30,641 nt of DNA from a virus (lineage: Duplodnaviria > Caudoviricetes). Below are positions 5,357-26,626 of this stretch, piece after piece; position 1 is the first letter of the stretch; every line of letters begins with the position of its first letter. Position numbers and translations under genes: made by a program. The stretch is taken from positions 1 through 30,641 of the IMG/VR virus record IMGVR_UViG_3300023105_001878, one strand, 5' to 3'. The notes below the pieces were generated by a model. That model had not been told where the DNA came from. It saw nothing but the letters and a program-made list of their open reading frames with translations, and made no database searches.

Positions 5357-5358
5357 AC

Positions 5359-5376
5359 TTGCCTTTCTTTGCCTTA
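5359..5376 (-). promoter_or_regulatory. 18-nt leader element TAAGGCAAAGAAAGGCAA over the dnaE ribosome-binding region; near-identical to the ssb leader element
   Basis: 17/18 identity to 26540-26557; ends 2 nt before the ATG. Confidence 0.7.
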
Positions 5377-5381
5377 GGCAG

Positions 5382-5387
5382 TATTTA
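5382..5387 (-). promoter_or_regulatory. TAAATA late-promoter-like motif between helicase and dnaE
   Basis: Minus strand TAG-TAAATA-CTGCC, directly after the helicase stop codon. Confidence 0.55.
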
Positions 5388-6818
5388 CTATTCCTCAGTT
5401 GACAAGTTGTTCAAGAAAGAGCGTAACATAGTACTATCTGTTTCTGCTTTGATTTTACCTACAGTATCGCCTTCGGCTGGATTTTTCTTTTCTTCTTCAA
5501 CGGGTGCAGTTGAGTTACCTCGTTTAATTTGATCAAATACTGTAGATTTACGTTTTGAAAATTCTTGATAATCACTATCATCTGCAAGATCTCTAATACG
5601 CAAGCTATCAACGTCGAATTCAAGATCAACTTTAGAGCCCACGCCGCTAGACGAACGTGTTTTCATAAGTTGTATTTGATAGCGTCCACGTTCACGCATA
5701 GCTCTACTAGTAAAGATACCAAACACATTATCGGCTGTATTGATCTTGCTAAGGCCGCCGGAAATATGTGAATGATCAAACTCTACTTCTTCAACTGCTC
5801 CTCTGTTTAACTGCGAGGCAGTTACAAATACAGTATTAAGTTCCATTGCTAGGTTACGCAGTTCTTCAGATACATATTTGTCTTTTACAAACATGTCACT
5901 AGGTGATACTTTAACACCCATTGGCATCATAAGATCGAGATAATCTACTAGTACTACATCAACTTTTCTATCAGTTTTAATTTCATACTCTTTAATATAA
6001 CTTCGAAGATCATTTGCTGTGCAGCCACTCGGCATGTACTTAACCTGCATTGCACCTGCTTTCTTTCCTATCATTTTTACTTTCATTTCAACATCTTCTA
6101 TTGACTTGAAAACATCTTTTGTAGGAATGTCTGTAGTCATCGAATCTATTCGCATACTCACTAAGTTTTCGGAAAGCTCAAATGTAAGATACAATACATT
6201 AAGGCCTGTCAAACACCAGTTAACACCCAAGTTTGCCATGAACAAACTTTTACCAGAGCCAGAGCCGCCTGCAAATATATTAAGTTCGCCTCTGTTAAAA
6301 CCGCCGAATAATTTCTTATCTAAACTATCCCAACCAGTACTAACTTGCCCATTTTTATCTTTAATTGCTTCAAGTCTAGCTCGTGGATCTGCAAAGTAGT
6401 CTGTTCCTAAATCTTTTTGTAAACCAATCTGCACGGCCTTCTTAACTAGATCTTCAACAGGTCCGTATTCGCCTTTTTCTAGTAAGTCGGCGCTTTTTAA
6501 GATAGCAGACTCTAGTGCTTTGTGTCTACTAAACACTTCAAATTCTTTTAATAGCCAATCATAGTGTTCTTCTCTTAATGCACCGGGATCTTGAAGTGCA
6601 GTTTGACACGAAGCATTGACCATTTGAAAAGTAGGCAACGAATTATGATCAGCAACATAATTTTTTAAAAATTCTGCTGCCGGCTGTAGTTTCCTATCAA
6701 ACGCTGACGGATCAAATACACTTTGGCATCTTACAAATGTTTCAGCATCTGTAAGCATCATTTCTAAATAAACTTTTTGTATATCGTATCCGTAATCAGT
6801 GTTTTGAGTTGTTGTCAT
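5388..6818 (-). CDS. Replicative helicase, DnaB/T4 gp41-like (SF4), 476 aa
   Basis: STGW..LD, Walker A GGSGSGKS, Walker B VLVDYLDLM, TASQLNR, MKTR. Confidence 0.95.
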   Translation of the reverse strand: MTTTQNTDYGYDIQKVYLEMMLTDAETFVRCQSVFDPSAFDRKLQPAAEFLKNYVADHNSLPTFQMVNASCQTALQDPGALREEHYDWLLKEFEVFSRHKALESAILKSADLLEKGEYGPVEDLVKKAVQIGLQKDLGTDYFADPRARLEAIKDKNGQVSTGWDSLDKKLFGGFNRGELNIFAGGSGSGKSLFMANLGVNWCLTGLNVLYLTFELSENLVSMRIDSMTTDIPTKDVFKSIEDVEMKVKMIGKKAGAMQVKYMPSGCTANDLRSYIKEYEIKTDRKVDVVLVDYLDLMMPMGVKVSPSDMFVKDKYVSEELRNLAMELNTVFVTASQLNRGAVEEVEFDHSHISGGLSKINTADNVFGIFTSRAMRERGRYQIQLMKTRSSSGVGSKVDLEFDVDSLRIRDLADDSDYQEFSKRKSTVFDQIKRGNSTAPVEEEKKNPAEGDTVGKIKAETDSTMLRSFLNNLSTEE

Positions 6819-7063
6819 TTAAATCTCTTTGCAATACGTTTAGCTAGGTACTTATGTAAGATGTAAAACCAAAAGCCATTTAATATTGGTTCAATAAGCG
6901 CAGTTAATCCTGCATCAAACCAATTAGCTCCAGTAATTAATCTAACTGTACTAATTGCAATTACAAAATGACCAAGCGTGTAAATAATAGCAAGTATAAC
7001 ACTATTGCCTACACTAAGTTTTTTGAGTACTTTAAATATTCCGTTTGTAAATTCATTAAACAT
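6815..7063 (-). CDS. Small membrane protein (DUF2061-like), 82 aa
   Basis: Two hydrophobic segments and an ALIEP…FYILH motif; start moved to ATG 7063, which has a GAGGA SD; ATGA overlap with the helicase. Confidence 0.6.
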   Translation of the reverse strand: MFNEFTNGIFKVLKKLSVGNSVILAIIYTLGHFVIAISTVRLITGANWFDAGLTALIEPILNGFWFYILHKYLAKRIAKRFK

Positions 7064-7067
7064 AATG

Positions 7068-7184
7068 TTAATCCTCGTAAACAAAAGGATCTTGATCCTT
7101 TAATTCTTTCAGTCTTTTTCTAAAACGTATTTCTTCAGTGATACGTCTATAAGGCCATAAAATTATATTGATTATCCAAACCAT
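7068..7184 (-). CDS. 38-aa microprotein MVWIINIILWPYRRITEEIRFRKRLKELKDQDPFVYED; absent from the ORF track
   Basis: Hand translation; fills the gap between primase and the membrane protein; ATG overlaps the primase 3' end; hydrophobic N-terminus, basic helix, DPFVY end. Confidence 0.65.
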   Translation of the reverse strand: MVWIINIILWPYRRITEEIRFRKRLKELKDQDPFVYED

Positions 7185-8155
7185 TTCTTTTCCTTTAATT
7201 TTATTTTCACAGCGTATGATTCTGCCTGTGTGGCAATACTGTATAACGTATAGATCTTTCCGTAACGTTCAACTGCATCTGCAATGTCGCTAATATCGTC
7301 GTCCCAGTCAGGCATACTAACGCTCCACCCTTGCTCTATTGCAGCCGATACAAGCTTCTTGCCTGCTTTATCTCTATCGGGTACAACTATAACTTGTTTG
7401 TTTAATTGATTGATTAATAGTGCTTGCTGCTCACTTATTTCCGATCCAAGTAAACCGATTCCGTCAACGTGTATAGCATCAACAACACCTTCGCAAACAA
7501 TTGCAAATACTTTATTATCAGTTTGATTGTCTAAGTTAAAACAATAGCCAGGCTGTTGCTCTGATAGATACTTCGGCTTTTTATCAGCTTGTATAGTTCT
7601 TCCTGTCCAACCTACAATATTACCTTTGTAGTAAAATGGAATAATTAATCTATCTCTAAAAGCTAAATCTGCTGACCAATAAAAAGTATAATCATCAGTG
7701 TTTAGTTGACGACTGTGCATATATTCAAAAATACTTGCTAGATGCTTAGGTGGTTCAGCAATGTCTATAATTTTTTCAGCATTTGGTGGTAATTGTACAC
7801 TAGTAAACTCGGGAAGATCATATGTAAACTCTTTTACTTGAATACCTTCGTTAGAACGCATTACTTCTAATGCAAGCTTATTAATTGTATCGTCAGGTAC
7901 ATTTAGCCATTGAAGTAATTGTCTTAATTTATAAGATATGTTGCGACCAGGCTGCCATCCTGTTTTAAATCCGCAATTAAAACAATGGTATGACACTTCT
8001 CCGTCGGACCCTTTAATGATGCCGCCACGCTGTCTTGTGTCAGCAGAAGTTCCGTTGTGATGACAACAAGGTGCATTGAAAGATGTCCATCCTGATGGTG
8101 TAACTTTCTGCTGCGACGGCAAATGTAATGTAATCACATCTTGAACTATATTCAT
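7172..8155 (-). CDS. DNA primase (T4 gp61/DnaG-like; Zn finger plus TOPRIM), 327 aa
   Basis: NAPCC…YHCFNC Zn-binding region, RLIIPF, GWTGR, PKYL, CEGVVDA, PDRDKAG. Confidence 0.92.
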   Translation of the reverse strand: MNIVQDVITLHLPSQQKVTPSGWTSFNAPCCHHNGTSADTRQRGGIIKGSDGEVSYHCFNCGFKTGWQPGRNISYKLRQLLQWLNVPDDTINKLALEVMRSNEGIQVKEFTYDLPEFTSVQLPPNAEKIIDIAEPPKHLASIFEYMHSRQLNTDDYTFYWSADLAFRDRLIIPFYYKGNIVGWTGRTIQADKKPKYLSEQQPGYCFNLDNQTDNKVFAIVCEGVVDAIHVDGIGLLGSEISEQQALLINQLNKQVIVVPDRDKAGKKLVSAAIEQGWSVSMPDWDDDISDIADAVERYGKIYTLYSIATQAESYAVKIKLKEKKWFG

Positions 8156-8161
8156 ACTACT

Positions 8162-8189
8162 ATTATAGCAAGAATAAGTTTATTGTCAA
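8162..8189 (-). promoter_or_regulatory. Consensus sigma70 promoter for primase (probably giving a leaderless mRNA)
   Basis: TTGACA (8184-8189), 16-nt spacer ending TGC, TATAAT (8162-8167); ATG follows after 6 nt. Confidence 0.85.
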
Positions 8190-8983
8190 TTTCTAATTTG
8201 AATTTTTTCTATATCTTCAGGATCTGCATCTGCAAAAAATCTTAAATATGTATATACACCATTTATGTTTTTTACAGTAGGCGATGTTGAACCGTCAAAT
8301 GCTATTGTAGAAACATCTACCCAATTAGTGCCATTAGTAATTTGATTTTCTAGAGTAGCTTGAATTTTAATGTTACCGGCGTAAGTGCTAGTATAAAATG
8401 CAATAGTATGCAGCGCATCATTATTGTTTGATTCAGGTTTTGCATATATAGATTCAGTAACCCATTCAGTTGTGCTGTCATACAATGGTGCAATTTCTGT
8501 CCAATTACTAGTCTCAGTTGTAGCTTGAGGGTCGGGATAAATGCTATCAGATAAATGTATAGTATTTGTGCCGTCAAAGTATGAATTAACATAAGTCAAA
8601 ACATTTTCATTAGATGTATTTTTAAAATAAATGCTATATGTTAAAAATTGATCATCAAGATCTTGAATATCAGCCTGCTCTAAGGCAACTTCAAATAAAC
8701 CTTTGTTTTTAAAAACTGTGCTATCTGATGTTTGTAACGAAGTGCCTATTTTTTCTATTACTGTGCTTTTGTTTTCATCATACGCTACAAAGTAAGGCGT
8801 AAGTGCACTTATATCTTGCGGTTTTTGATCAGCATTTAGTAATCTAAATTGTAATTTATTGTCTATACCTTTATATACTTTTAATTGTTTTTGATACACT
8901 GCTCTATACTCCGTGACGAAGCCAGATTCATTCATAATAATGTCTGTTCGGTTGTTTAATAAATATACTGGCGTGTTTTGCAT
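8186..8983 (-). CDS. Hypothetical beta-rich protein, possibly a virion structural protein, 265 aa
   Basis: Clean ORF rich in T/N/S/Y; TAAATA 4 nt before the ATG. No catalytic motif recognised. Confidence 0.55.
   Translation of the reverse strand: MQNTPVYLLNNRTDIIMNESGFVTEYRAVYQKQLKVYKGIDNKLQFRLLNADQKPQDISALTPYFVAYDENKSTVIEKIGTSLQTSDSTVFKNKGLFEVALEQADIQDLDDQFLTYSIYFKNTSNENVLTYVNSYFDGTNTIHLSDSIYPDPQATTETSNWTEIAPLYDSTTEWVTESIYAKPESNNNDALHTIAFYTSTYAGNIKIQATLENQITNGTNWVDVSTIAFDGSTSPTVKNINGVYTYLRFFADADPEDIEKIQIRN
8960..8965 (+). promoter_or_regulatory. TAAATA motif that could drive the plus-strand gene at 9001
   Basis: AATAAATA 35 nt upstream of ATG 9001, inside the 5' end of the divergent gene. 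Confidence 0.45.
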
Positions 8984-8987
8984 ACTA

Positions 8988-8993
8988 TATTTA
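8988..8993 (-). promoter_or_regulatory. TAAATA late-promoter-like motif, TAAATA-N4-ATG
   Basis: Minus strand AATAAATA-TAGT-ATG; no room for an SD. Confidence 0.65.
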
Positions 8994-9000
8994 TTTGTTT

Positions 9001-9372
9001 ATGTTATTAAAAAATATTGAAAAAGATTTTCCATTTATCAGTGTAGTTACATACGGTGGTAATGAATATGTAGGAATAATATCCAATCAAGATGCTGTTG
9101 TCACAAACATGTATGTCTTTACATTGTTACGATCTGATGACGAGAAGCATAGATTTTTAGAACTGGGGAATGCCTGGTGGTGGGAATCTAACAGACTTAT
9201 ACCAATAAATATTTTTTTGCGGAATGAAATAAAAGAATTTAGTTATTGCCAATTATCTATGAACACCAAAGACGTGAAGATTACTTTCGGTCCGTGTGTG
9301 AATTTAACAAATTTAAGTGTTAAGAGAATAAAAAGAAAAAGTGTCCAACTAATTCGTAAAGCTAAAAACTAA
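9001..9372 (+). CDS. Hypothetical phage protein, 123 aa
   Basis: Only ORF filling the gap; FPFISV…EYVGII…WWWESNR.IPINIFL; ATG 9001 preferred to TTG 8995. Confidence 0.75.
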   Translation: MLLKNIEKDFPFISVVTYGGNEYVGIISNQDAVVTNMYVFTLLRSDDEKHRFLELGNAWWWESNRLIPINIFLRNEIKEFSYCQLSMNTKDVKITFGPCVNLTNLSVKRIKRKSVQLIRKAKN

Positions 9373-9938
9373 GTATATCCGTAAGAAATTTTTTCACAAA
9401 TTAAATTCATATGTACAATCACAGCAAATGCATACGAAAAAGAATGACTCTTTTTAAAGAAATATTCATCACCGTCTGGTTGTACCCAAACTTCACGTAA
9501 AATTGTATCCCAATCAGAATTTAAAAGATACCGTTTAGCAGGTCGTATGATTGCAAGTGTAGCTGCTAGTTGCTCTACGTTACGTGGTTTCAATTTTTGT
9601 AAAATTTCACTATGTCCGTTAAGATGAAACACTAAATCACTAAAGTCTTTTTGCCACAACAGATCCCATAACGGTTCTTTGCTAACTAGATAATCTAATT
9701 GATCTTCGCTTTGAATATCTTTGTATATGCTTACGTTAAGAAAATCTAATTTAAAATATCCTCGATCATCTGCGTCTTTGTAGTTTAGTGTAGAGCAGTT
9801 GTCTATAGGATTGTGCGGAATTTCTGTCGGATATATTCCAGTGTTATGCTTTTTTCCGTTAGAAAGCATTGCAACTCTGTGCTGTAGTTTTTCTAGTATA
9901 ATAGATCTGTCAGCAAAGTCAATGTCAACGTCGGGCAT
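9369..9938 (-). CDS. Miniature DnaE-like catalytic module (189 aa), probably the C-terminal half of a split family C polymerase
   Basis: Begins MPDVDIDF; then KHNTG, GYFKLDFL, VFHL, KP…LAIIRP, YFFKKSHSFSYA. All three catalytic Asp are present; there is no RGS motif, PHP domain or OB fold. Confidence 0.85.
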   Translation of the reverse strand: MPDVDIDFADRSIILEKLQHRVAMLSNGKKHNTGIYPTEIPHNPIDNCSTLNYKDADDRGYFKLDFLNVSIYKDIQSEDQLDYLVSKEPLWDLLWQKDFSDLVFHLNGHSEILQKLKPRNVEQLAATLAIIRPAKRYLLNSDWDTILREVWVQPDGDEYFFKKSHSFSYAFAVIVHMNLICEKISYGYT

Positions 9939-10416
9939 TTTTCTTTGCTTTCTTTTCAGCTAAGTTCCATTTTAATTTAGATACTCTATCTTTAAATGTT
10001 ATGCCGTTTAAATGATCAAGTTCATGTAAAAATAATCTTGCACTGTAATCAGAAGTTACTGTTCGATTCAACTCTAGATTTTCGTCATAGTATTCAACAA
10101 GAATATCTCTTGGGCGCTGTACTTGAATGTTTATACCAGGAAAGCTTAAACAACCTTCGATATCAAGACTTTTTGTTTCTGTATATTGTAACACTTTAGG
10201 ATTAATGCACATAACTGCATCTTCTCTAGTATTTCCCATAACAAAAAGTCTGTAATCTAGCCCTACTTGATTTGCGCTTAAACCAATGCCTATATTAGAT
10301 AACATTATGTCTAACATTTGTTCTTTAATATCTTTAGTGTCAAAAGTTATATTTTCTATATCAACTTCGTCTAAAGTTTTAGATAAAAATTCGTTAGGAT
10401 AATACAATAAATTCAT
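9925..10416 (-). CDS. def: Peptide deformylase, 163 aa
   Basis: GIGLSANQVG, EGCLS and HELDH: all three PDF motifs. Confidence 0.97.
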   Translation of the reverse strand: MNLLYYPNEFLSKTLDEVDIENITFDTKDIKEQMLDIMLSNIGIGLSANQVGLDYRLFVMGNTREDAVMCINPKVLQYTETKSLDIEGCLSFPGINIQVQRPRDILVEYYDENLELNRTVTSDYSARLFLHELDHLNGITFKDRVSKLKWNLAEKKAKKNARR

Positions 10417-11117
10417 AATTTACTTTCTTTAACAACTTGTTTTACTAGCTCAACATCTGCAGGCTTACTTTTAAATTTCCTACTCCAGTGTTTTGGATCA
10501 ATAACATTTACAAGCATATTCAATTGTTCATCTGAAAATTTACCTAGCATATTTTTTCCTGTAGTGCAGTTAAGCACTAACCATGGAGAAATTTTTCCGT
10601 CTTTTAGATGCCATACTGCTCTGTTAGGATTAACATATTTAAAGTAATGATTCCAAGGCGATGGTGAGTTATCTTTACTCCATTCTATCATTGTATTAAT
10701 CGATCTTTCTAATGCAGTTTGTACATCTTCTTTTAAAATTAGATCTAGCACATAAGCTTCATATAAATCATCTTTACACCAATGATCTAGTTTAATGCCA
10801 CTTGTTACAACGTGATCGATATATCTTTCTGTGTATAAAGGTTGTACATTATTTAAATAACTTCCAAATTTTACAAAAGCATTATAGTATGGTGACTTGC
10901 AAAAGTCGTCGTATGTCTTTTCTTTTTTACTTCCTGCACTTAGCTTATAAAATCTGTTAAACGCCCATAAACCTAACAATGCAGGCTTTGTGTCTTTTTG
11001 TAACCAACGCCTTTTTGGCTCACACATATGAGCTGCTAGTGTTTTTTCTCTAGCATAACTTTTTTTGCAGTATTCACAAGTATATGACTTTTCAGAGTCC
11101 TTTAGTGTCGACGCCAT
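10413..11117 (-). CDS. Protein with an N-terminal C2H2/C2HC-like zinc finger, about 234 aa
   Basis: YTCEYCKKSYAREKTLAAHMC; start moved to ATG 11117 to reduce the overlap with the upstream gene. Confidence 0.7.
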   Translation of the reverse strand: MASTLKDSEKSYTCEYCKKSYAREKTLAAHMCEPKRRWLQKDTKPALLGLWAFNRFYKLSAGSKKEKTYDDFCKSPYYNAFVKFGSYLNNVQPLYTERYIDHVVTSGIKLDHWCKDDLYEAYVLDLILKEDVQTALERSINTMIEWSKDNSPSPWNHYFKYVNPNRAVWHLKDGKISPWLVLNCTTGKNMLGKFSDEQLNMLVNVIDPKHWSRKFKSKPADVELVKQVVKESKL

Positions 11118-11559
11118 GGTCTTCAGCCAGTTGTTTGATTTGTTTTTTTGTAAGTGTTCCAGCAAGAAGTTCTACCTCGTCCATCTTCATATTTGGATAA
11201 ATGCCTGCAAGCATGTTTACTATTTTAGAGTTTGCGCCTTTTTTCTTCTTAAGGCCAATCCAAGGATGAAACTCTTTTTTTCCTGTCTTGCCTGCAACAC
11301 ACAGTAATTGCCATTGCAACTTAGGATGTTTTGCACCTATCTCTGCCCAATGTTTATTATAGTATTCGTTTACTTTAAATACTGCTAATTCTTGTTTCTC
11401 TCTGTTACCCTTAACACTACTTATGTATCTATTTAGATTCCATAAATCTAGTTTTATATCTTTTTTGCCGTCGTCGCTAGCAGCATCGTATAGTTCTTTT
11501 ATTCCCATATCAATAGCAGGAATAAGTTCTTTAAATAAATCTAATTCTTTATTTGGCAT
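11092..11559 (-). CDS. Probable sliding-clamp loader small subunit (T4 gp62-like), 155 aa
   Basis: Size and pattern LNRYISS…N…LQWQLL…FHPWI..KK…Y resemble gp62; lies in a replication operon. The similarity is remote and judged by eye. Confidence 0.5.
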   Translation of the reverse strand: MPNKELDLFKELIPAIDMGIKELYDAASDDGKKDIKLDLWNLNRYISSVKGNREKQELAVFKVNEYYNKHWAEIGAKHPKLQWQLLCVAGKTGKKEFHPWIGLKKKKGANSKIVNMLAGIYPNMKMDEVELLAGTLTKKQIKQLAEDHGVDTKGL

Positions 11560-12748
11560 TAATTAATTCTTCTAGTATCGCTAAACAAGCAGTAGATTGG
11601 TTTGCTGCTCCCTCAGTAATAGCTATTTTAACACATCGTCTAGTAAAGTCAAGCGGAAAGCGAACACCTTTTTTGTCCATACCAGTGTTTACCAAATACA
11701 CATTGCATTTGTGTTCGTCTATCTTTTTCATTAGTAAATCACTATATTCACTTACTGCTCTTGGCATAAATGGCGAGCCATAGCAAGGCGAAAATAAAGG
11801 CTTAATCTCGTCAGTGCCTGCTTCGGTGCCTGGCATTTGACTAGTGTACCCTGTTTCAAAGAAACGCTTTACTGTGTCTCCGGTAATTTTGCTTATTGAG
11901 GGAAATACACCTTTTGCATCCATTGTTAAGAAAAAGATGTTTTTAGGGTGATTAAATTCGCGATCTTGATGATATGCATTTTCAACACAATGCAACGGAT
12001 AGCTTAATCTAGCATTCGGCACTCCGGGATTTTCGATCACAAGTGTATTATGATCTTTTGCCTTTTCAACTGCATTGAATATAGTTTCGTGTGTATCAGG
12101 TGTAAGCCCCTCGCTTTTTGCATAGCAACCAGTTTCGATCATTTCAATGCCCTTGTTATGCCATGCAATCTCATCATCACCTATGAGCATGAAATCAGGG
12201 TCACTACTTAACGTAGTTTTTCCTGTACCAGATAATCCAAACATAAGATTTGTAGTGCCAGCAAATGTAAATGCACTACAATGCATAGGTAAAATATTCT
12301 TTTTTGGTAGTAAGAAACTTACAACTCCAAATACAGACTTTTTAATTTCACCCATAAATGTTGTGCCAGCAATTAAAATATCACAACTATCTAAGTTAAT
12401 ATAGATCTTTGGTTCTTCAATATTTAACGAAGTGCTATGACAAATAGTCCAATCCCAAGACTCTTCGTCTGCCCAATCTTCGTCGGTGAACATATTTCTT
12501 ACAAACTGGGCATGCCGATAATCGTTAGTTATAAATCTAAAACGTATTCCGCAAGTAGTAAAATAGATAATATGATCTAAATCTTCGCAACTTGTAATTT
12601 GATCAAAGAACTTTTCAAAGTCTTCATCTTTACCGATTTTATTATATTTAGGACGAGTTAAATCTAGCTCGCTTGTAAGTTCGCCGAAATAGTATTTGTT
12701 ATCGGGACTTCTTCCAGTAGGTACTGTACTAATTTCTACATTTGGCAT
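11549..12748 (-). CDS. pckA: ATP-dependent phosphoenolpyruvate carboxykinase, unusually short (399 aa)
   Basis: TGRSP, GEIKK, MHCSA, FGLSGTGKTTLS, LIGDDE, GCYAK, NARLSYP, HPKNIFFLTMDA, GTE, FSPCYGSPFMP, VYLVNTG. Confidence 0.95.
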   Translation of the reverse strand: MPNVEISTVPTGRSPDNKYYFGELTSELDLTRPKYNKIGKDEDFEKFFDQITSCEDLDHIIYFTTCGIRFRFITNDYRHAQFVRNMFTDEDWADEESWDWTICHSTSLNIEEPKIYINLDSCDILIAGTTFMGEIKKSVFGVVSFLLPKKNILPMHCSAFTFAGTTNLMFGLSGTGKTTLSSDPDFMLIGDDEIAWHNKGIEMIETGCYAKSEGLTPDTHETIFNAVEKAKDHNTLVIENPGVPNARLSYPLHCVENAYHQDREFNHPKNIFFLTMDAKGVFPSISKITGDTVKRFFETGYTSQMPGTEAGTDEIKPLFSPCYGSPFMPRAVSEYSDLLMKKIDEHKCNVYLVNTGMDKKGVRFPLDFTRRCVKIAITEGAANQSTACLAILEELINAK

Positions 12749-13445
12749 TATGCTTGCGCCATTCCTCTAAATCTGTTGGTGTATTTATTTCCATACCATT
12801 GAAGTCTACCTTCTGTATATTAATATTAACACCGTTTTGAAGAAAACGCAACTGTTCTAATTTCTCTATTTTTTCTTCTTCAGACTGGGGCATAGACTTA
12901 TAGCTAACCAGTGTGCGCCAATTGTAACCATATACACCGAGATGATGATCACCGTACTCTAAACTTGCTCTACAAAACCAGTGCGCATGTGTGCCGTTGT
13001 GAATCATCTTAACTGAGTTAGGATCTGTGCGCAGCTCAGGAGCCATATCAGTGTATGCTGTTACTACCTTATGCCCTTCGTCTAACCCTTGCTTAATAGC
13101 AAGGATTATATCTTCAGTAATGTCAGGCATGTCGCCTTGAACATTAATATAACTTTTATATATTCCCGAAGCTCGTCTAAAAAAGCCTTTGCCCGATACT
13201 GCTTCAACGCCGTGTGCGCAACGTTCAGTGCCGTTATCAGCGTAAGGTGTAATGAATACATGCTCAGCTGGTATTTCTTCTTTTATTTGGGCACTGTCGG
13301 TTAACACATAGGTATCTAATCCAGTAGCTACGCATTTGTCGTACACTGTACGAATAAGACTTTTGCCGTTGAGGTCAGCAAGCATCTTTTTTGGAAATCT
13401 AGTGCTTGCTAATCTAGCTGGTATAAAAATAGCAGTGTTATTCAC
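12729..13445 (-). CDS. kdsB: 3-deoxy-manno-octulosonate cytidylyltransferase (CMP-Kdo synthetase), about 238 aa
   Basis: IPARLASTRFPKK, NGTER, INVQGDMP, HLGVYGY, EKLEQLRFL, INTPTDL; GTG start at 13445 overlaps the kdsA stop. Confidence 0.95.
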   Translation of the reverse strand: MNNTAIFIPARLASTRFPKKMLADLNGKSLIRTVYDKCVATGLDTYVLTDSAQIKEEIPAEHVFITPYADNGTERCAHGVEAVSGKGFFRRASGIYKSYINVQGDMPDITEDIILAIKQGLDEGHKVVTAYTDMAPELRTDPNSVKMIHNGTHAHWFCRASLEYGDHHLGVYGYNWRTLVSYKSMPQSEEEKIEKLEQLRFLQNGVNINIQKVDFNGMEINTPTDLEEWRKHNAKCRN

Positions 13446-14214
13446 GATAGCTATCCTTAATGTCCTTAATAACTGTTTCAAAGTTATCAAGACGTATCAT
13501 ATTAGGACCATCACTAGGTGCATTATCAGGGTCATCATGGACTTCTAGGAAAAAGTTGTCCACGCCCATAGCAGCAGCGCCGCGGGAAAGTGGAGCAACA
13601 AAATTCCTGTTACCACCCGAGCTTGAGCCTTTACCACCTGGTTTCTGTACTGAGTGGGTAACATCAAATACAATAGGATTGTTGTAGTGCTCAAGCATGT
13701 AAAGTATACCAGTGAAATCAACCACCAAAGTGTTATATCCAAAACTTGTTCCTCTTTCAGTTATCCATACTTCGTTAGCACTTTTGGTTTTTGATAATAT
13801 ACCTTCAACATCCCATGGTGCTAAGAATTGTCCTTTTTTAATGTTAACAATTTTTCCTGAATTACAAGCGGTTGTAATTAAGTCTGTTTGCCTACATAAA
13901 AACGCAGGAATTTGAATTACATCTATAGCATTATACCATTCGTCGACACCTCGCCATGCATGAATTTCAAACACACTATGAAAGTCAGTAAGAATCTTAA
14001 CATCAAGATTTTCTTTTATTTGTACAAAGTCGTCCATAGTGCGTTGCATGCCACGACCACGCTTACCGTTAGCACTTGTCCTGTTTGCTTTATCAAAGCT
14101 AGCTTTGAAATAATAGTCAATGCCTAGATCGTCGCACACTGACTTACAGTGTTTGGCAATCATTGTGCTATGTTCAAGGCTTTCGTGTTGACACGGTCCT
14201 GCTATAATTTTCAT
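13438..14214 (-). CDS. kdsA: Kdo-8-phosphate synthase (metal-dependent type), 258 aa
   Basis: IAGPC, FKASFDKANRTS, QIPAFLCRQTDL, NIKKGQF, ERGTSFGY, FDVTHSVQ, EVH…SDG. Confidence 0.97.
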   Translation of the reverse strand: MKIIAGPCQHESLEHSTMIAKHCKSVCDDLGIDYYFKASFDKANRTSANGKRGRGMQRTMDDFVQIKENLDVKILTDFHSVFEIHAWRGVDEWYNAIDVIQIPAFLCRQTDLITTACNSGKIVNIKKGQFLAPWDVEGILSKTKSANEVWITERGTSFGYNTLVVDFTGILYMLEHYNNPIVFDVTHSVQKPGGKGSSSGGNRNFVAPLSRGAAAMGVDNFFLEVHDDPDNAPSDGPNMIRLDNFETVIKDIKDSYRE

Positions 14215-14805: not shown

Positions 14806-14808
14806 TTT

Positions 14809-15174: not shown

Positions 15175-15185
15175 GTATTTTTCCT

Positions 15186-15695: not shown

Positions 15696-15696
15696 G

Positions 15697-17160: not shown

Positions 17161-17163
17161 ATT

Positions 17164-18162
17164 TTACTCTATTGTTTCTAATAATGGAAAGCCTGAATTA
17201 TTATAACATATAATTAAATCAGATAACGGAAATTTTCTAAACCAACCTTTAGTTCGCGGATATAGTGCAAATATTGTTTCTGTTTTTGTATCTTGTTCTA
17301 AATTAAGTTGCATAGTTATTTCACCTGTATAGGTAGTTTCTAACTCATCTCGTATTTTAAAAGCTTCGTCAGTGAGATCATCAAAGAAATTATAATCATG
17401 AACAAACAAAATTTTATCTCTGTTAAGTTTATTTAAGGTTTTTGCTATTTCTTTTATTGAGTCGGAAGGCGAAATATAAACAAATCTTGATTTTCTATTG
17501 ACAATTTTTTCTAAGTATTTGTCGTTAGAATTAAAAGTTGTATCTATAATTTCAAGACCTATTCGTTGTTTGCGATCTATGTACATGTGTAAATTTTCAT
17601 TTGACGGAGCACCGTACTTACTAGTATAAAAATTAACAGCATCTAGCGGAAGGTTTTTGATTTCATAATTATAAAGTCCTGGCACATAACTAGTAGGATC
17701 ATTTTTTATTTTCTGCAATTCTACACATCGCTGAGTTAACTCGGGTGCTATTTCAAAATTATGGTGTTGTAGTATATTAACTATTTCAAAACAGCTTTGA
17801 TCTGTAAATTTATACGTGTATGTATTATCTATTTTGTTTTTACTTACTAGCCATTGTTTTGCTAGTTCTATAAAATTTATAAGTTTTTTATTAAAAACAA
17901 ATCTCACAATAATTTTATCTTGAGTAAATTTTACATAGCGAGATCTATCAATAAATCTAATCGGAAATTCCAAAGGCAACTCGGATGCGTCTTTGTATTT
18001 AGAATAAGTTTTTAATTTTGTTAATGCTAGCTCTAGTTGATTGTCTGTAAGTGCACGACTTTTTCTATAAACCTGTACACATAAACTTTTAAATAATTGT
18101 CTATGGTTGTCGGTTACAGACTCGTCTTCGCTAGCCTTACTAATCAGTTGTTCTAAAAACAT
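17164..18162 (-). CDS. Hypothetical protein, 332 aa, first gene of the uvsW operon
   Basis: Long ORF directly behind a sigma70-type promoter; no motif recognised. Confidence 0.75.
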   Translation of the reverse strand: MFLEQLISKASEDESVTDNHRQLFKSLCVQVYRKSRALTDNQLELALTKLKTYSKYKDASELPLEFPIRFIDRSRYVKFTQDKIIVRFVFNKKLINFIELAKQWLVSKNKIDNTYTYKFTDQSCFEIVNILQHHNFEIAPELTQRCVELQKIKNDPTSYVPGLYNYEIKNLPLDAVNFYTSKYGAPSNENLHMYIDRKQRIGLEIIDTTFNSNDKYLEKIVNRKSRFVYISPSDSIKEIAKTLNKLNRDKILFVHDYNFFDDLTDEAFKIRDELETTYTGEITMQLNLEQDTKTETIFALYPRTKGWFRKFPLSDLIICYNNSGFPLLETIE

Positions 18163-18167
18163 TCTTT

Positions 18168-18196
18168 ATAATAATTTATTAAAGACGTTCTGTCAA
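18168..18196 (-). promoter_or_regulatory. Sigma70-type promoter heading the 18162-to-9369 gene run
   Basis: TTGACA (18191-18196), 17 nt, TATTAT (18168-18173), 5 nt, ATG. Confidence 0.75.
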
Positions 18197-19024: not shown

Positions 19025-19027
19025 AGT

Positions 19028-19033
19028 TAAATA
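19028..19033 (+). promoter_or_regulatory. TAAATA late-promoter-like motif, TAAATA-N4-ATG
   Basis: TAAATA-CCTT-ATG (19038); same geometry as at 8988-8993. Confidence 0.65.
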
Positions 19034-19037
19034 CCTT

Positions 19038-20809: not shown

Positions 20810-20813
20810 TGCA

Positions 20814-22523
20814 TCATTCCATTGACCGGAGTGTTTTCCATGCAAAACCCGAACGCATTTCAGCAGAGGTAAATTGATTATACGACAAATGTCTTGCAAA
20901 AGCTTCTACTAGATCTGTAGATATCATCGGCAGGCTTTCTATATTTTCTATTTTAGCATCGTAAATCATTGATGCTGCATTAGGTGCTAAAGTTATTGCA
21001 GGCTTACCATAAAGTAAGGCTTCTGTTGCTGCAATACTGTTAAATGTTACTAAGCAATGCATGTCATCAAATTCGCTTTGAATCGGATTTGTGGTAACTC
21101 TTTCAGTACGACTTGGCTTTAATCTTATTCGTATTTCTCTATCAGAGTGCTTTTTGATTTGTGCAATAGTTTTATCCATCCAAGTATCTAAATCTTGGTT
21201 ATAAAACTTCATTACTTTTTCACTTGGCGGACAAATGAGAATATAAGAACCGCCTCTGTGTTTACGTGGCCTCCAATTTAACCTGTTCAATCTATCACTA
21301 GGAAAATCTTTAAGTGGTCCAAGATTCTGTAAACTATTTTTTGTTATTCTGTGATATTGTTTTGTTTTAGCTAGCTTTGGTTGTATATAACCTGTATCTA
21401 TTGCATAAAAATCAATATTATTTTTTTGACACCATTTTAGTGCCTTTTGTCCACCGCCGCCAAGCCCCCTTATTACTATTGTATGATCTTTCAAACTTTC
21501 TTTATCGTCAAAATCCCCAATTTTTCCGCCTACGCCTAAAATGAAGTCTTTAAGATACGGATCATAATCTACACCTTTGCGACGATAATCAAAATCAGTA
21601 TCGTCTTGTTTTTTAGTTAGAATCGATGCAACTTTAACGCCCATCATTGTCTCCATTTGGTTTTCAAAATCATTTTTTAAATATTTTTGAGTTGGATCTA
21701 ACATTTTATTAGTTAGACTAATGTATATTTCCTTTAACTCGGCAGATAGCGTTAAATCCTCAATTCTAATGACTCTTGTTTTTAGGTCGCTGATTTTTTT
21801 TTTGGATTCTTCAAGAAGATCATTTACTATTGTATGCTCTATTTTAATCCAATCAATTGCATATTCGCATTCTTGGTATTCTTCAAACCAAGGACCGCCT
21901 TCGGTATAGTGTAGGGCTTTAGGTTTCCCGTCTTTTGGTTCTTTATACCATCCTACTAACCAATTCCATTCATGACTTAATTTACCGATATCTTGATCGT
22001 CTAACCAGCTGAATCTGTGCACATAAGCTGCACTAGTACTTTCTGCATTAATGTTGTCAGGTGTTAAAAATTCTTTATTTTTTGGATGTGCACAATTAAG
22101 CAACATCATACTAGACCAGTTTTTTCGGGGATAAGGAATTTGTTGTTTTCCGTCCATTTTCCTTCCCGGTTGGGGAGTATAATCGTGTTGCGCACACATT
22201 ACTGCATAGTTGTCATTTACCTGTTCGAATAGTTTTGCAACATCATCTAGAAAAAGAAAATCACAGTCAATAAACAGCGCCCAGCCTTTATAATCAGCAA
22301 GATATGGAACAAGATATCTAGTAAATGTAAATTCAGTGCTGGCTAATTTATCTTCGTCTCTTAGATACACACCATCTCTACGTAGCTCTCTTTGCTTAAT
22401 TGGTTGAATATCAACAGGCACCGAAGCAAGATTTTCTATGCTTTTCTTTGCAACTTGATATGCTATATCTTCACGACTATCCCAGCCAATAAAAATCTTA
22501 AGAGGAGTTTGTGTTTTTGTCAT
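20814..22523 (-). CDS. Two-domain glycosyltransferase: N-terminal GT8-like GT-A domain fused to a KpsS-like GT-B domain, 569 aa
   Basis: N-terminal: IFIGWDSRE, STEFTFTR, FIDCDFL (DxD), PRKNWSS, WNWLVG, HYTEGGPW. C-terminal: AIDTGYIQP, LVTFNSIAATEALLYGKPAI. Confidence 0.8.
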   Translation of the reverse strand: MTKTQTPLKIFIGWDSREDIAYQVAKKSIENLASVPVDIQPIKQRELRRDGVYLRDEDKLASTEFTFTRYLVPYLADYKGWALFIDCDFLFLDDVAKLFEQVNDNYAVMCAQHDYTPQPGRKMDGKQQIPYPRKNWSSMMLLNCAHPKNKEFLTPDNINAESTSAAYVHRFSWLDDQDIGKLSHEWNWLVGWYKEPKDGKPKALHYTEGGPWFEEYQECEYAIDWIKIEHTIVNDLLEESKKKISDLKTRVIRIEDLTLSAELKEIYISLTNKMLDPTQKYLKNDFENQMETMMGVKVASILTKKQDDTDFDYRRKGVDYDPYLKDFILGVGGKIGDFDDKESLKDHTIVIRGLGGGGQKALKWCQKNNIDFYAIDTGYIQPKLAKTKQYHRITKNSLQNLGPLKDFPSDRLNRLNWRPRKHRGGSYILICPPSEKVMKFYNQDLDTWMDKTIAQIKKHSDREIRIRLKPSRTERVTTNPIQSEFDDMHCLVTFNSIAATEALLYGKPAITLAPNAASMIYDAKIENIESLPMISTDLVEAFARHLSYNQFTSAEMRSGFAWKTLRSME

Positions 22524-23147
22524 TTATTCCCATCCAAAAATATAATCTTTTCGTACATTTGTAATTTCTATTGCTCCGAGTGATCTCAAATACTCACCGG
22601 CACAAAAGTTAGTATCAGCCTGCTGTTCGCATACAATAATAGGTTTATACTTTAAAATAGTTTCTGTTGCACCTTTAAGAACTTCAAGTTCATGACGCTC
22701 GCAATCTATTTTGAATAATCCAAACTTAGGCAAATTTAAATCATCTATACGTTTTATTTCAATGCTGCCGGATCCAACGGTGGTTATAAAACTTCCGCCT
22801 GTATTTTCACTATCGTATATCATTTCAACAACAGTATTTTCGTTACCAACTGCATGTCTGTAAATTTCAACGGGCAGCCCAGTTACATTTTTTTCTAAGC
22901 AGGAATACACTTGTTCTAATGGTTCGTAAGCAATTACTTTTTTAAACTTTTCAGCAAGTGGCTTAGCCCATAAACCTACGTTAGCGCCTGCATCTACTAC
23001 AACGTCAAAATCAGTTACATGCTTATACGCAGCATCTCTTACATCATCTTGATATTCAGCAGGTCCGCCGTTTTTAACACGCTTTGCAATTAATCTCTCA
23101 AAGTGGTCATCAGTATCGGGCATCCAGTAGTCAAATACTTTTTTCAT
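22524..23147 (-). CDS. FkbM-family SAM-dependent methyltransferase, 207 aa
   Basis: VVDAGANVGLW, AYEP, IDDL, FKIDCERHELEVLKGA…P.I..E. Confidence 0.92.
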   Translation of the reverse strand: MKKVFDYWMPDTDDHFERLIAKRVKNGGPAEYQDDVRDAAYKHVTDFDVVVDAGANVGLWAKPLAEKFKKVIAYEPLEQVYSCLEKNVTGLPVEIYRHAVGNENTVVEMIYDSENTGGSFITTVGSGSIEIKRIDDLNLPKFGLFKIDCERHELEVLKGATETILKYKPIIVCEQQADTNFCAGEYLRSLGAIEITNVRKDYIFGWE

Positions 23148-23148
23148 A

Positions 23149-23706
23149 TTATTTTCTTTTTAATTCTATTATAAATTTAAGAGAATGTAGTACGCCTGCT
23201 TTTTTTGTTTTTCCAACTTTAATGTAATCTTCAGAATGTACAATTTCCCATTCAGTACCAAGTCTTTTTGTAAATTCTTTTAACCACCATTCGGGTTGTT
23301 CTATAATCAAGTGTGCATTTCTTCCATCACTTAAAGACTTTTTTGCAGGATGGCATGCAATTAGATGCCATTGATGTTTTGAACTTTTAAAAAGATAGTC
23401 CATTGTTTCATCAAAATAGTCTGGTTCGATATGTTCTAACACATCTGCACTATATATGAGATCTACATTATTAGGTAATTCAATTGGACTAGTAACAGGA
23501 TCATAACTAATTACATTGACTGTTGGCCATTTGTTTTTAAATGCTTCTGAAGTACCTCCTTTACCACTACCGTAATCTAAGATACTTTTTATATTATTAT
23601 TTTCAACAAGTGATTGTACTTGTTTGTGTATTTTGGTACTATTGCCAAAACTTTTTATGACATGCAAATTAGTTAATTGATCTAAATACTCTTTTGAATA
23701 GTTCAT
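23149..23706 (-). CDS. Class I SAM-dependent methyltransferase, 185 aa
   Basis: ILDYGSGKG, SYDP, DVLEHI, NAHLI. Confidence 0.9.
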   Translation of the reverse strand: MNYSKEYLDQLTNLHVIKSFGNSTKIHKQVQSLVENNNIKSILDYGSGKGGTSEAFKNKWPTVNVISYDPVTSPIELPNNVDLIYSADVLEHIEPDYFDETMDYLFKSSKHQWHLIACHPAKKSLSDGRNAHLIIEQPEWWLKEFTKRLGTEWEIVHSEDYIKVGKTKKAGVLHSLKFIIELKRK

Positions 23707-23714
23707 GGCTTTCC

Positions 23715-24170
23715 TTACAGAACTGCATCTTCCATACCTGCAACTCTTAACTTAACTATATTAGTTATCTGCCATTGCTTCTGATCTAGGCCTTTTAAGA
23801 CTCCTAACCAATTATTTCTAATTAGGGCAAACTCATTTACTAATTTTTCATAATCGACAACATCAGCTTCGCCGTCGACATATTTTTCAACATCTCGACT
23901 GCTAAGTGCACGTTGATAATTTTCTAAATACTTTTTAAAAAAAGAACTACGCAACCTACGCAGTTCAATATTAAGATAATTTAATATAGCTTCAATTTCT
24001 TGCAATTGATTAAATCTATATTCTACTGTTCCGGGCAAAGCTGCTGCTGCTTTTTCTACACTGCCTGATAACTTTACTTCGGCCCTGGCCGATACAAGTT
24101 CCTTTTCGTAAAAATCTACAGCAGCAGGTATTTTAGCCACGTCTCTTGATATTTCACTATACCAGCCCAC
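23715..24170 (-). CDS. uvsY: UvsY-like recombination mediator, about 151 aa
   Basis: Helical protein ending KGLDQKQWQITNIVKLRVAG; size and position downstream of uvsX; GTG start overlaps the upstream TAG (ATG 24182 is an alternative). Confidence 0.75.
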   Translation of the reverse strand: MGWYSEISRDVAKIPAAVDFYEKELVSARAEVKLSGSVEKAAAALPGTVEYRFNQLQEIEAILNYLNIELRRLRSSFFKKYLENYQRALSSRDVEKYVDGEADVVDYEKLVNEFALIRNNWLGVLKGLDQKQWQITNIVKLRVAGMEDAVL

Positions 24171-24400
24171 TACTGTTCCCACTCTTCGTCGTCGTCGACA
24201 TCAGCGTCGTCTTCGTCTAAGTAATACTCAATAGCTTCGTCTAGTATAACATCTTGACCCAAACAGTCACGCAGTGTTTCGTCAGCAACACCATAATCTA
24301 CAAGAGTGTCAACATAGCGCTCAGCTACATCGTGTACACTTTTTTTGTCAAGATATTCTTTAAATACCGCCCATACATCAATGATTTGATTCTCGTCCAA
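24170..24400 (-). CDS. Small acidic hypothetical protein, 76 aa (TTG start)
   Basis: AAGGGAG SD; very acidic tail; sits between uvsX and uvsY. Confidence 0.75.
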   Translation of the reverse strand: MDENQIIDVWAVFKEYLDKKSVHDVAERYVDTLVDYGVADETLRDCLGQDVILDEAIEYYLDEDDADVDDDEEWEQ

Positions 24401-24415
24401 TGTATTTCTCCCTTT

Positions 24416-25489
24416 TTATTCTTGAACTAGTTCTTCTGTATCCTGCTCTAATTCAATTTCTTCGTCGGTATTTATATTTCTAAGATGATATTCTTCCATT
24501 ACTGTATCTAGTAATTCGCCTGTCCATTTTTTTCTATATTCAAGAATTTCTTCGCCGCTAGCGCTAACATACTTTAGTCGATTACCGCTTTTTTCGATAA
24601 GACCTTTTGCTTCAAAAAGTTCAAGAAGACCACTGTATGGATTCATACCTGTTTCGTAGGGAATTTTTACTTGCACACCTTCAAACGGTTTTGCATAACG
24701 AGTTTTCATTACTTTACATCCAGCACGGATACCACGTACTTCTGAAATTTTATTTCCGTCTTCATCTTCTTTAAGTTTAAGCTTTTTCATTGCAACTACA
24801 ATACTAGATGCATAGATAAAGCCTTGTCCGCCTGAGATCTTATCATCCGGATCAAACATATCCTGCGATGCATAAGTGTGATTAGTACATACTAGTCCTA
24901 CATTGTGTGAACCGATCATGTTAACAGTATTTCTTACAAGTGAAGTAAGCGCCTTAGGTTTACGGCCCATATCACCCTTCATGTCACCTTTGTTAAATTG
25001 ATCAACATCTGTAGGTGTAAGCAACATACCTAAAGAGTCAATTACAAACAATACCTTTGGACGTTCTTCTTCGTTCATTGCTTTATAATCTGCCATAAAT
25101 GTTGAAATTGTTTTTGCAACATCATCAATCATTGACATATTAAGTTTAAGCAGTTTTTCTTCTGACGTATCTACATCAAGTGCATGTAACCATGATTCGT
25201 CAAGTGCATTTTCTGAGTCAATCAATACTACAAAAATACCTTGTTCTTGTGCATGACGTACAATGTTTCCTGCACAAATATAAGATTTGCCTGCACCTGA
25301 TTCGCCAGCAAAAACAGTAACCTTACCCATCGGCACTCCTTTGTTAAAGTCGCCGGAGATAAGATAGTTTAAAGCAAAATTGCCAGTTGAAATCCAATCA
25401 GTTGGATCGTGAAAGCCAGCACTCATGCCAGGAATAGATTTGGTAATGCTATTTCTAAATTTAGTCGGGTCGAAAGCCTTTGTTGTCAT
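24416..25489 (-). CDS. uvsX: RecA/UvsX recombinase, 357 aa
   Basis: ISTG..ALN, Walker A GESGAGKS, IDSENA, VIDSLG, TNHTY, SGG. Confidence 0.95.
   Translation of the reverse strand: MTTKAFDPTKFRNSITKSIPGMSAGFHDPTDWISTGNFALNYLISGDFNKGVPMGKVTVFAGESGAGKSYICAGNIVRHAQEQGIFVVLIDSENALDESWLHALDVDTSEEKLLKLNMSMIDDVAKTISTFMADYKAMNEEERPKVLFVIDSLGMLLTPTDVDQFNKGDMKGDMGRKPKALTSLVRNTVNMIGSHNVGLVCTNHTYASQDMFDPDDKISGGQGFIYASSIVVAMKKLKLKEDEDGNKISEVRGIRAGCKVMKTRYAKPFEGVQVKIPYETGMNPYSGLLELFEAKGLIEKSGNRLKYVSASGEEILEYRKKWTGELLDTVMEEYHLRNINTDEEIELEQDTEELVQE
24469..24476 (-). promoter_or_regulatory. TATAAATA (exact T4 late consensus) inside the uvsX 3' end, upstream of the uvsY/methyltransferase/GT run
   Basis: Plus strand TATTTATA at 24469-24476, about 70 nt before the next start codon. 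Confidence 0.5.
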
Positions 25490-25506
25490 TAATTTATCCT
25501 ATATGT

Positions 25507-25540
25507 AAAAAAGTAGAGCTATGCATTACATAGCCCTACT
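25507..25540 (-). terminator. Rho-independent terminator between ssb and uvsX
   Basis: Minus strand AGTAGGGCTATG-TAATG-CATAGCTCTACT then a T tract: 12-bp stem with one G-U pair. Confidence 0.85.
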
Positions 25541-25551
25541 ATTATCAAACG

Positions 25552-26532
25552 TTAGTCGTTTTGACGTGCACGAATCATTGCAAGAATATCTTGCGATTGT
25601 GGTGCTGCTGTTTCTGCTGCTGGTGCAGGATCAGGCTCAAAAGGCGGGTCAACAGGTGTTGATTCTGATACTGTTTCAACTGGCGCTGCTGGTGCAGGCG
25701 AAGGTGTTGATGCCGGTGCAGGTGCTGCTGTTTTTACTGGATCGCCAGTATTCATACCTGGAGCTTTAAAATACTGCCCCCAGGCATCTGGATCATATGC
25801 TTCGCCATCGACAGATGCTTCAAACATATCTGTCATTACTTTGATAGCAGTTTCATCAGGTTGACTTGGCAAAAAGTCGTTAAGGTTAAACAAACCATAG
25901 TTGTTTACAGCATGCATTTCCGCATCACTTAGTGGGCGTTCTCTACGTGCCCATGTAGATGTAGAATAGTCTGCATAACCGCCCTTTGAACTTTTGTTAA
26001 GTCTAAAATCAATACCCTGAGTATAATCAGTTGGAAGTTCTTCCATATCAGGATCCATAAGAGCTTGTTTGATAATTTGGAAGATCTGAGGACCAATGAT
26101 AAATCGTCGGATAGGATTCTCCGGCGCTTCGTCGTCAGTAAGAGGATTGTCTGTTACAAAACCTTGGAAGATGTAACTGCGTTTCTTCCAATACTTACGA
26201 CCCATGTCTTCAAGACTTGGATCTTTAAACCAACCACGTACTTCCGAAAGAATAGGACAGCTTGCTCCATACATTTCCATACAGGGAACTTGAACTACAA
26301 TCGGTTTACTGTCTGTTTGACCTTTAATACCCGCAAACGGGAGCTTGATCATTAGACGTTCACGCCAGAAAAAAGTGTTATCAGGATCGCCATCAGGAAG
26401 GAATCGAATAGTTGCACTTTCGCCTTCTTTGATATTCCAAAATGGGAAAATAGGATTAGGACCGCTTGGACCTTGAGTTGAGTTGCTTTCTTGCTGTTGC
26501 AGTTTTGCTCGGATTTCAGCTAGTGATGTCAT
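25552..26532 (-). CDS. Single-stranded DNA-binding protein, T4 gp32-like, about 326 aa
   Basis: ATIRFLP, C…CPI, YWKKRSY, GIDFRLNK…GGYADYSTS.W, Pro/Ala-rich tail; likely start MTSLAEIRAKL at 26532. Confidence 0.88.
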   Translation of the reverse strand: MTSLAEIRAKLQQQESNSTQGPSGPNPIFPFWNIKEGESATIRFLPDGDPDNTFFWRERLMIKLPFAGIKGQTDSKPIVVQVPCMEMYGASCPILSEVRGWFKDPSLEDMGRKYWKKRSYIFQGFVTDNPLTDDEAPENPIRRFIIGPQIFQIIKQALMDPDMEELPTDYTQGIDFRLNKSSKGGYADYSTSTWARRERPLSDAEMHAVNNYGLFNLNDFLPSQPDETAIKVMTDMFEASVDGEAYDPDAWGQYFKAPGMNTGDPVKTAAPAPASTPSPAPAAPVETVSESTPVDPPFEPDPAPAAETAAPQSQDILAMIRARQND

Positions 26533-26539
26533 AATATTT

Positions 26540-26571
26540 TTGCCTTTCATTGCCTTAATATATTGTGCCTA
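26540..26571 (-). promoter_or_regulatory. ssb leader with three AGGCA repeats, including the 18-nt element TAAGGCAATGAAAGGCAA
   Basis: Minus strand TAGGCACAATATATTAAGGCAATGAAAGGCAAAAATATT-ATG. Confidence 0.7.
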
Positions 26572-26597
26572 AAGATGTAATATAAAGCACATTGTCT

Positions 26598-26626
26598 ATA
26601 TTACATAATAATATTTAGTCTGTCAA
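26598..26626 (-). promoter_or_regulatory. Sigma70-type promoter for ssb with a TAAATA motif nested in its spacer
   Basis: TTGACA (26621-26626), 17 nt containing TAAATA (26612-26617), TAATAT (26598-26603). Confidence 0.78.

Follow-up and report, generated by a model that had tools for sequence, protein, structure and literature searches.

A conserved AGGC(A/T) repeat in the ssb and dnaE leaders of uncultured giant phages, a likely translational operator

The window, by which we mean the whole stretch of DNA analysed, is the complete virus record IMGVR_UViG_3300023105_001878 (Caudoviricetes, 30.6 kb), and two of its minus-strand genes carry the same five-nucleotide word, AGGC(A/T), more than once in their leaders. 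The first, ssb (25552-26532), encodes a single-stranded DNA (ssDNA)-binding protein (SSB) of 326 amino acids with a gp32 fold (phrog_1192, E 4e-63), the proposed reader of the word. The second, dnaE (3722-5356), encodes a compact DnaE of 544 amino acids with the catalytic and finger domains of a DNA polymerase III (Pol III) alpha subunit and without the PHP domain. On the minus strand of the ssb leader, AGGCA stands at 26566-26570 (word 1), 26551-26555 (word 2) and 26541-26545 (word 3), the last fused with the Shine-Dalgarno sequence (SD). The dnaE leader has a first AGGCA at 5370-5374 and a last one at 5360-5364 (both minus strand), the latter fused with a weak SD (GAAAGG) 3 nt ahead of the ATG.

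A first-pass annotation had described the two leaders as sharing an 18-nt element, and the sequences were found as described: TAAGGCAAAGAAAGGCAA lies on the minus strand at 5359-5376, 2 nt ahead of the dnaE ATG (5356), and TAAGGCAATGAAAGGCAA on the same strand at 26540-26557, 7 nt ahead of the ssb ATG (26532). The third AGGCA of the ssb leader (26566-26570), the TAAATA of the dnaE leader (5382-5387) and a TGCC-TAA-GGCA (5370-5380) were likewise located, and the leaders of all other called genes of the window have fewer than two words. The 17/18 match stands as a statement about the sequence, but alone it is within chance: 18-mer pairs with at most one mismatch form 6 clusters in the window and 0-6 in 40 order-2 Markov resamples. 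No third copy with three or fewer mismatches occurs in the window, and a scan of the window for AGGCA-N5-AGGCA with one mismatch gave 2 matches against 1.5 expected by chance. Among related loci the 18-mer recurs in one of 78 dnaE leaders (a 100%-identical one) and in none of 79 ssb leaders. Being lineage-specific and within chance expectation, it was rejected as the unit in favor of the five-nucleotide word. Both window leaders end in GAAAGGCA, which terminates the ssb leader in the window and L081 only and the dnaE leader in the window and L001-L003 only, and GGAG is found in 0 of the 26 ribosome-binding sites (RBSs) of the window versus 24-36% in seven related contigs. These two features fit the unusually long match, and the long likeness in the window lineage is consistent with a lineage-wide SD shift; the word was retained while these SDs lost GGAG. 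GGAG is also under-used in the coding DNA of the window (35 versus 55 expected) and in relatives; a RegB-like nuclease or the SD preferences of the host might account for the shortage in the window.

The part that exceeds chance is the position and conservation of the five-nucleotide word. Leaders were taken from the best 80 of 191 dnaE loci and the best 80 of 600 ssb loci, of which 78 and 79 were usable; at least two words occur in 76 of the 78 dnaE leaders, and at least three (three or four) in all 79 ssb leaders. A broader set of 120 ssb loci drawn by pattern (116 usable), in which SSB identity falls to about 55%, has at least two words in 102 leaders, one in 11 and none in 3, with variants that include TGGCA and AGACT. 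Specificity was counted on the 3268 open reading frames (ORFs) that a simple caller gave for a redundant set of 201 sequences (2.4 Mb), comparing distinct 70-nt leaders: two or more words precede ssb in 66/66, dnaE in 50/52 and all other genes in 18/2650, so that an element common to and specific for the ssb and dnaE leaders, and kept in their orthologues, is borne out. Nor is the motif a generic SD context, as CA or CT follows GAGG in only 34 of 354 other leaders. Within single contigs, at least three words precede just 3 of the 327 genes of G013 (203 kb), namely ssb, dnaE and a holin-like gene, and ssb alone in G011 (199 genes) and G012 (166 genes), while no gene of G014 (301 genes) has that many. 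The ssb leader of L260 (G015) has no AGGCA words and carries a direct duplication of about 35 nt in their place. A quick SSB tree, in which rows without the word tend toward long branches, is not used as evidence.

The last word overlaps the SD in most leaders and stands apart from it in deeper lineages; among the 55 unique orthologous dnaE leaders, it ends 3-5 nt ahead of the ATG in 51. The distance between words varies continuously from 7 to 59 nt, short spacers being 50% A, and 40 of the 65 distinct spacers of at least 23 nt fold into hairpins (3 of the 65 begin at a word upstream of the promoter). As judged from these alignments, the conserved unit is AGGC(A/T) in two to four copies at free spacing. 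It is a real conserved cis element and likely a translational operator.

The ssb leader contains a predicted sigma-70 promoter (TTGACA-17-TAATAT, 26598-26626, minus strand) with a TAAATA late core in its spacer (26612-26617); the sigma-70 pattern is present in 59 and TAA(A/G)TA in 39 of 66 ssb leaders. Two helices are predicted downstream, both on the minus strand. P0 (ATGTAATATA with TATATTACAT, 26575-26606) would be the hairpin of a longer late or read-through transcript and begins approximately at the predicted late transcript start. P1 (TGTGCT with AGGCACA, 26564-26591) would be the 5'-terminal hairpin of the sigma-70 transcript, begins approximately at its predicted start and pairs word 1 in its 3' arm, so that P0, which competes with P1, would free this word. 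The long form of the window leader folds P0 and the short form P1. Covariation of P0 was run on those 38 of the 80 ssb loci that were chosen as free of long inserts. It gave 92% pairing, both sides altered in 5 of 10 pairs, numerous G-U pairs and 0 of 500 shuffles scoring as high, to be read with the knowledge that related sequences can beat such shuffles and that slid controls were 6-68% paired; RNAalifold found P0 unprompted. The two helices stand in H-type order but share five columns. An H-type pseudoknot was considered: in an analysis of 135 of 167 leaders, its S1 scored 15.5 versus 11.7 for the swap and 10.6 for the shuffle, but S1 runs on across the arm of S2, and the arrangement is therefore retained only as two alternative hairpins. 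Together, the hairpins inserted between words and the covarying P0 helix with its G-U pairs point to an element that acts at the RNA level.

In the dnaE leader, TAAATA (5382-5387, minus strand) is the predicted late-promoter core and directly follows the helicase stop. It stands ahead of 57/57 dnaE leaders versus 565/2663 others (21%), at 7-10 nt from the first word in a short type and 19-24 nt in a long type; all 25 long-type leaders have a hairpin in this gap, and the short ones have no 5' hairpin. In phage CBB the late motif is predicted to be ATAAATA, according to the portion of that report cited here (PMC5259590). The mini-hairpin TGCC-TAA-GGCA (5370-5380, minus strand), to which the first-pass annotation had drawn attention, probably has its 5' arm upstream of the late start site, and it was rejected as a conserved part of the operator, as only two of the 32 short-type dnaE leaders have the TGCC arm (22 have TGYY). 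No LexA box was found near the ssb or dnaE leader.

A third carrier, absent from the window, is a holin-like gene of 85-98 amino acids with a C-terminal hydrophobic helix (L034:1791-2048, minus strand; L329-L361; G013:143636-143893; G014:23700-23996), which a search without positive control did not find in nine further records. After TAAATA, 13 of its 22 distinct leaders (G014 start corrected) have two to four words, and in most of the word-bearing leaders these lie in a loop closed by GATGC/GCATC, adjoining a second hairpin able to mask the SD. In cultured jumbo phages (L161-L168) the ssb leaders bear other, lineage-specific repeats at the same place: TAGCACAA in Atu_ph07, AAAGAAGCAAA in GAP32, a (G/A)GCTC type in Phosso and CTACTTAAA in Vibrio 2.275.O. 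The GAP32 10-mer AAAGAAGCAA and the Atu_ph07 doublet are each confined to the ssb leader, and a search for the Phosso repeat (14 matches versus 7 in the control) was uninformative outside it. We regard these repeats as candidate autogenous operators; ssb repeats that differ by lineage would be expected of an operator drifting with its own protein. The window SSB shares 44-57% identity with its counterparts in PA5oct, Phosso, Atu_ph07, GAP32 and RaK2, which are group-2.2 jumbo phages according to the cited part of PMC7824862.

Sigma-70-driven early genes of the subclade of the window carry a different motif, GAGGGC(A/T), at the SD (47/182 versus 6/2455), in arrays such as L053:17646-20654, L176 and L003:8880-9884; L003:7447-8379 and L175:13973-14272 are candidate TGCCTC-repeat stretches. 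Membership of GAGGGC(A/T) in an AGGC(A/T) regulon was considered and rejected: a second upstream word occurs in 7 of 60 such leaders versus 4 of 37 other early leaders, and the motif is nearly absent from G011-G014. Given this lack of excess and this near-absence, it is treated as separate.

The gp32 likeness of the SSB, proposed from the sequence, is upheld by an AF2 model (mean pLDDT 72.8), which matched T4 gp32 with Z 12.5 and rmsd 2.9 over 194 residues and RB69 gp32 with Z 12.1, the next match having Z 3.6 (VIA-align); PDB sequence searches with the SSB or the SSB alignment gave no relevant match. In the compact DnaE, which matches PF07733 (E 8e-42) and PF17657, D103, D105 and D227 are intact in the window and invariant in 10/10 aligned sequences, the last of them being the residue that we take to be the third aspartate by its position in the motif. 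Its best NCBIfam model is NF004225, the one used as yardstick for DnaE2 (175 bits versus a cut-off of 939, which the short length precludes), and DnaE1 models score 158-163 bits. The earlier proposal that this enzyme is accessory is supported by its sporadic distribution and its co-occurrence with the split minimal Pol III piece of the family. Among ten ssb-picked contigs that include the helicase, all of them fragments like every uncultured contig here (at most 83% complete), three have it (G004, G013 and G005, where the end of the contig cuts it), and it was not found in the other seven (G001, G007, G011, G012, G014, G015 and G016); nor was it found in the seven cultured relatives searched. 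A scan with the distant DnaE of LR756508 gave no relatives, and no SSB of the family of the window was found in the LR756508 record.

On balance we hold it to be somewhat probable, from comparative data, that SSB represses its own message and that the sporadic DnaE joined that operator. The gp32-fold SSB, when free of ssDNA, would bind AGGC(A/U) words on mRNA and block the ribosome site of the ssb message, and probably that of the accessory DnaE too. The leader would offer a predicted 5' hairpin (none in short dnaE leaders), two to four words in A-rich single-stranded spacers and a last word usually on the SD. DnaE and, in some lineages, the holin-like gene would carry words under a predicted late promoter, and ssDNA drawing SSB away would raise the translation of both. 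The transcription starts, the identity of the reader, the repression and its release by ssDNA are steps that we infer. We favor SSB as the reader because ssb is the most constant carrier, because its words do not depend on dnaE, because 5' structure, repeats and SD are arranged as in the gene 32 operator, and because different repeats occupy this position in the cultured relatives, those of GAP32 and Atu_ph07 being restricted to the ssb leader. DnaE itself is an unlikely reader, as three ssb words persist in G001, G007, G011 and G012, contigs that cover the helicase and in which no compact DnaE was found.

Several observations weigh against SSB as the reader. For T4 gp32, the one specific target described is the gp32 message, with UUAA(A) as the repeat. 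The T4 gp32 zinc-binding subdomain reads Cys77-X3-His-X5-Cys-X2-Cys90 in the section of PMC535899 cited here; in the SSB family C84 is invariant and C92 nearly so, with no further conserved Cys or His nearby, and no full gp32-type set of zinc ligands is apparent, a call made without a residue-level gp32 alignment. P1, although 93% of its cells are paired, shows little covariation (117/500 shuffles score as high), and P0 and P1, which share bases, look like alternatives and not like a T4-type pseudoknot. The window leader folds no more stably than shuffles, and the predicted unpairedness of the words is only 0.26-0.63. Nine of the 22 holin-like leaders have fewer than two words, and the words of this leader type are located far ahead of the SD. 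As all uncultured contigs are incomplete, a gene for another regulator could have escaped view, and the RNA runs X1-X4, available as contigs only, in small shares and mostly of relatives' sequence, give no starts, strand or levels.

A wider reading can be put forward tentatively, as a possibility that we judge rather unlikely: SSB would be a sequence-specific sensor-repressor of a small regulon, and ssDNA load would de-repress the translation of SSB itself, of a minimal, damage-tolerant DnaE and, via a structural switch, of the holin-like gene. The SOS-like version proposed by the first-pass annotation would additionally require damage-responsive release and a lesion-tolerant DnaE, and we consider it similarly doubtful.

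The best surviving alternative, to which we give a small likelihood well below that of SSB as the reader, is that the words are sites of a different sequence-specific RNA-binding repressor, of the phage or the host (RegA-like or CsrA/TRAP-like), that co-regulates ssb, dnaE and the holin-like gene. Multi-site RNA-binding repressors typically recognize short words at free spacing with the last on the SD, which is the layout found here, and the word hardly varies among SSBs that are 55-100% identical; the incompleteness of the contigs leaves room for such a regulator. CsrA/RsmA sites need a GGA core, whereas the upstream words read (T/A)AGGC(A/T), and GGA occurs only in the SD-fused copy of relatives. 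The RegA alternative raised in the first-pass annotation gained no support, as PF01818 had no match in 18 records (mostly fragments, searched without a positive control), and RegA is placed in group 2.1 in the cited part of PMC7824862. Moreover, no other gene family has an autoregulation-like leader, and ssb is the sole three-word gene in G011 and G012.

We think it quite improbable that the RBS is masked by a phage antisense RNA whose UGCCU-bearing loops base-pair with the words. The early genes of the window's subclade do share GAGGGC(A/T) at the SD, and intergenic TGCCTC-repeat stretches in L003 and G002 might base-pair with the GGAGGCA that is fused with the SD in the ssb leaders of relatives. 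However, 236 kb of intergenic DNA read by eye held no recurring element with several UGCCU loops, and the candidates are mostly TGCCTC, whereas T or A mostly precedes the upstream words. Five-base pairings at free spacing would also be weak, and the words stand apart from the SD in deeper lineages.

Even less probable in our estimation is a role in mRNA half-life and not in ribosome access, with the words cut or processed by a RegB-like endoribonuclease or acting as stability elements. T4 RegB, which cuts a short word in SD regions as described in the cited part of PMC3014915, is a precedent, the last word does overlap the SD, and GGAG is under-used in these coding sequences; against this, 581 coding sequences show no depletion of AGGC(A/T) (z -0.8 versus synonymous shuffles), and one cut would not need several copies per leader. 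The least credible explanation, a DNA-level operator, generic SD context, translation enhancer or chance and recent copying, can draw on the lineage-specific, within-chance 18-nt likeness and on the overlap of P0 with the -10 box, where it is readable as a DNA inverted repeat, and is opposed by the 18/2650 other leaders with two words, the 34/354 with CA or CT after GAGG, the continuous spacing with hairpin inserts and the G-U pairs that P0 keeps.

Around the two carriers lie further replication genes, all on the minus strand. A DnaB/gp41-like helicase gene (5388-6818) is directly upstream of dnaE, and its leader is without words. The uvsX/recA gene (24416-25489) lies downstream of ssb and serves as a negative control, its leader being without the repeat; among uvsX leaders two words occur in 3/64. 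As context only, a 189-amino-acid piece of a split minimal Pol III alpha (phrog_11778) is encoded at 9369-9938, a split form described for group-2.2 jumbo phages in the cited part of PMC7824862. The primase gene (7172-8155) starts about 6 nt after a sigma-70 -10 box and looks like a source of leaderless mRNA, and so does, in several relatives, the gene matching 17164-18162, with a start at about the same distance from such a box. Inside the replication region, 11549-14214 holds genes for an ATP-type PEP carboxykinase and for CMP-KDO synthetase-like and KDO8P synthase-like proteins. Large late-type proteins are encoded at 381-3695 (1104 amino acids, no Pfam match) and 27056-30640 (at least 1194 amino acids).

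Should the SSB-read operator with its SOS-like extension be true, it would constitute a LexA-free SOS circuit at the level of translation, which new genes could join through the gain of five-nucleotide words, and two promoters would give the ssb message two alternative 5' folds. If the operator gates a second polymerase, the phage would have a response to damage or replication load without LexA. The autoregulation of T4 gp32 is a textbook circuit, and the more than 160 leaders with a defined five-nucleotide word, their lineage variants and the cultured phages with different words form a natural panel that makes directly testable how a non-specific SSB selects an RNA. According to the cited part of PMC3014915, gp32 autoregulation in diverse relatives needs study and no gp32-RNA structure exists. 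Rfam gave only chance-level matches for the window (E 2-5) and none for 12 related loci. Literature searches, whose scope was main texts open without subscription, found no description of the AGGC(A/T) element, and the STAXI motif, a pseudoknot-repeat element as presented in the cited part of PMC2864571, is different and was rejected as the same element.

We contend that AGGC(A/T) words are conserved, as far as the sequences sampled here indicate, across a large family of uncultured giant phages, and that the element would work most like the T4 gene 32 operator. In the cited parts of PMC535899 and PMC3014915, the gp32 proteins of T4 and RB69 act as autorepressors by way of a 5' structure and short repeats in their leaders, and the operators of T4, T2 and RB69 resemble the present element in combining a leader of a gp32-fold SSB, a 5' RNA structure and, after it, short repeats within an A-rich, unstructured segment reaching the RBS, with an operator sequence that varies between lineages. 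They differ in that the word is UUAA(A) in T4 and AGGC(A/U) here, that two competing hairpins tied to two predicted promoters replace the mapped pseudoknot, and that the words here also precede the compact DnaE and the holin-like gene, which those parts of the two sources do not describe for gp32. The M13 gene V protein (gp5) represses the mRNA of gene II, another replication gene, in the cited part of PMC535899. It is thus likewise a phage SSB that acts as a specific translational repressor of a different replication gene; unlike the present case, it is an unrelated SSB of an ssDNA phage, whereas the operator proposed here is shared with the SSB's own message. The SOS-induced DnaE2/ImuC are error-prone polymerases, and like them the compact DnaE is a second, dispensable C-family polymerase that could respond to ssDNA load; unlike them it has 544 amino acids without PHP, falls far below every NCBIfam cut-off, has no LexA box and would be controlled at translation. 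The split minimal Pol III alpha of group 2.2 belongs to the same phage group and is represented in the window by the 189-amino-acid piece (PMC7824862, in part), whereas the 544-amino-acid DnaE is a separate one-chain enzyme. Finally, the T4 RegA regulon, in the cited part of PMC3014915, also places one repressor over the initiation regions of several phage mRNAs, but RegA acts on about 30 mRNAs, whereas the repeat described here marks two to three gene families.

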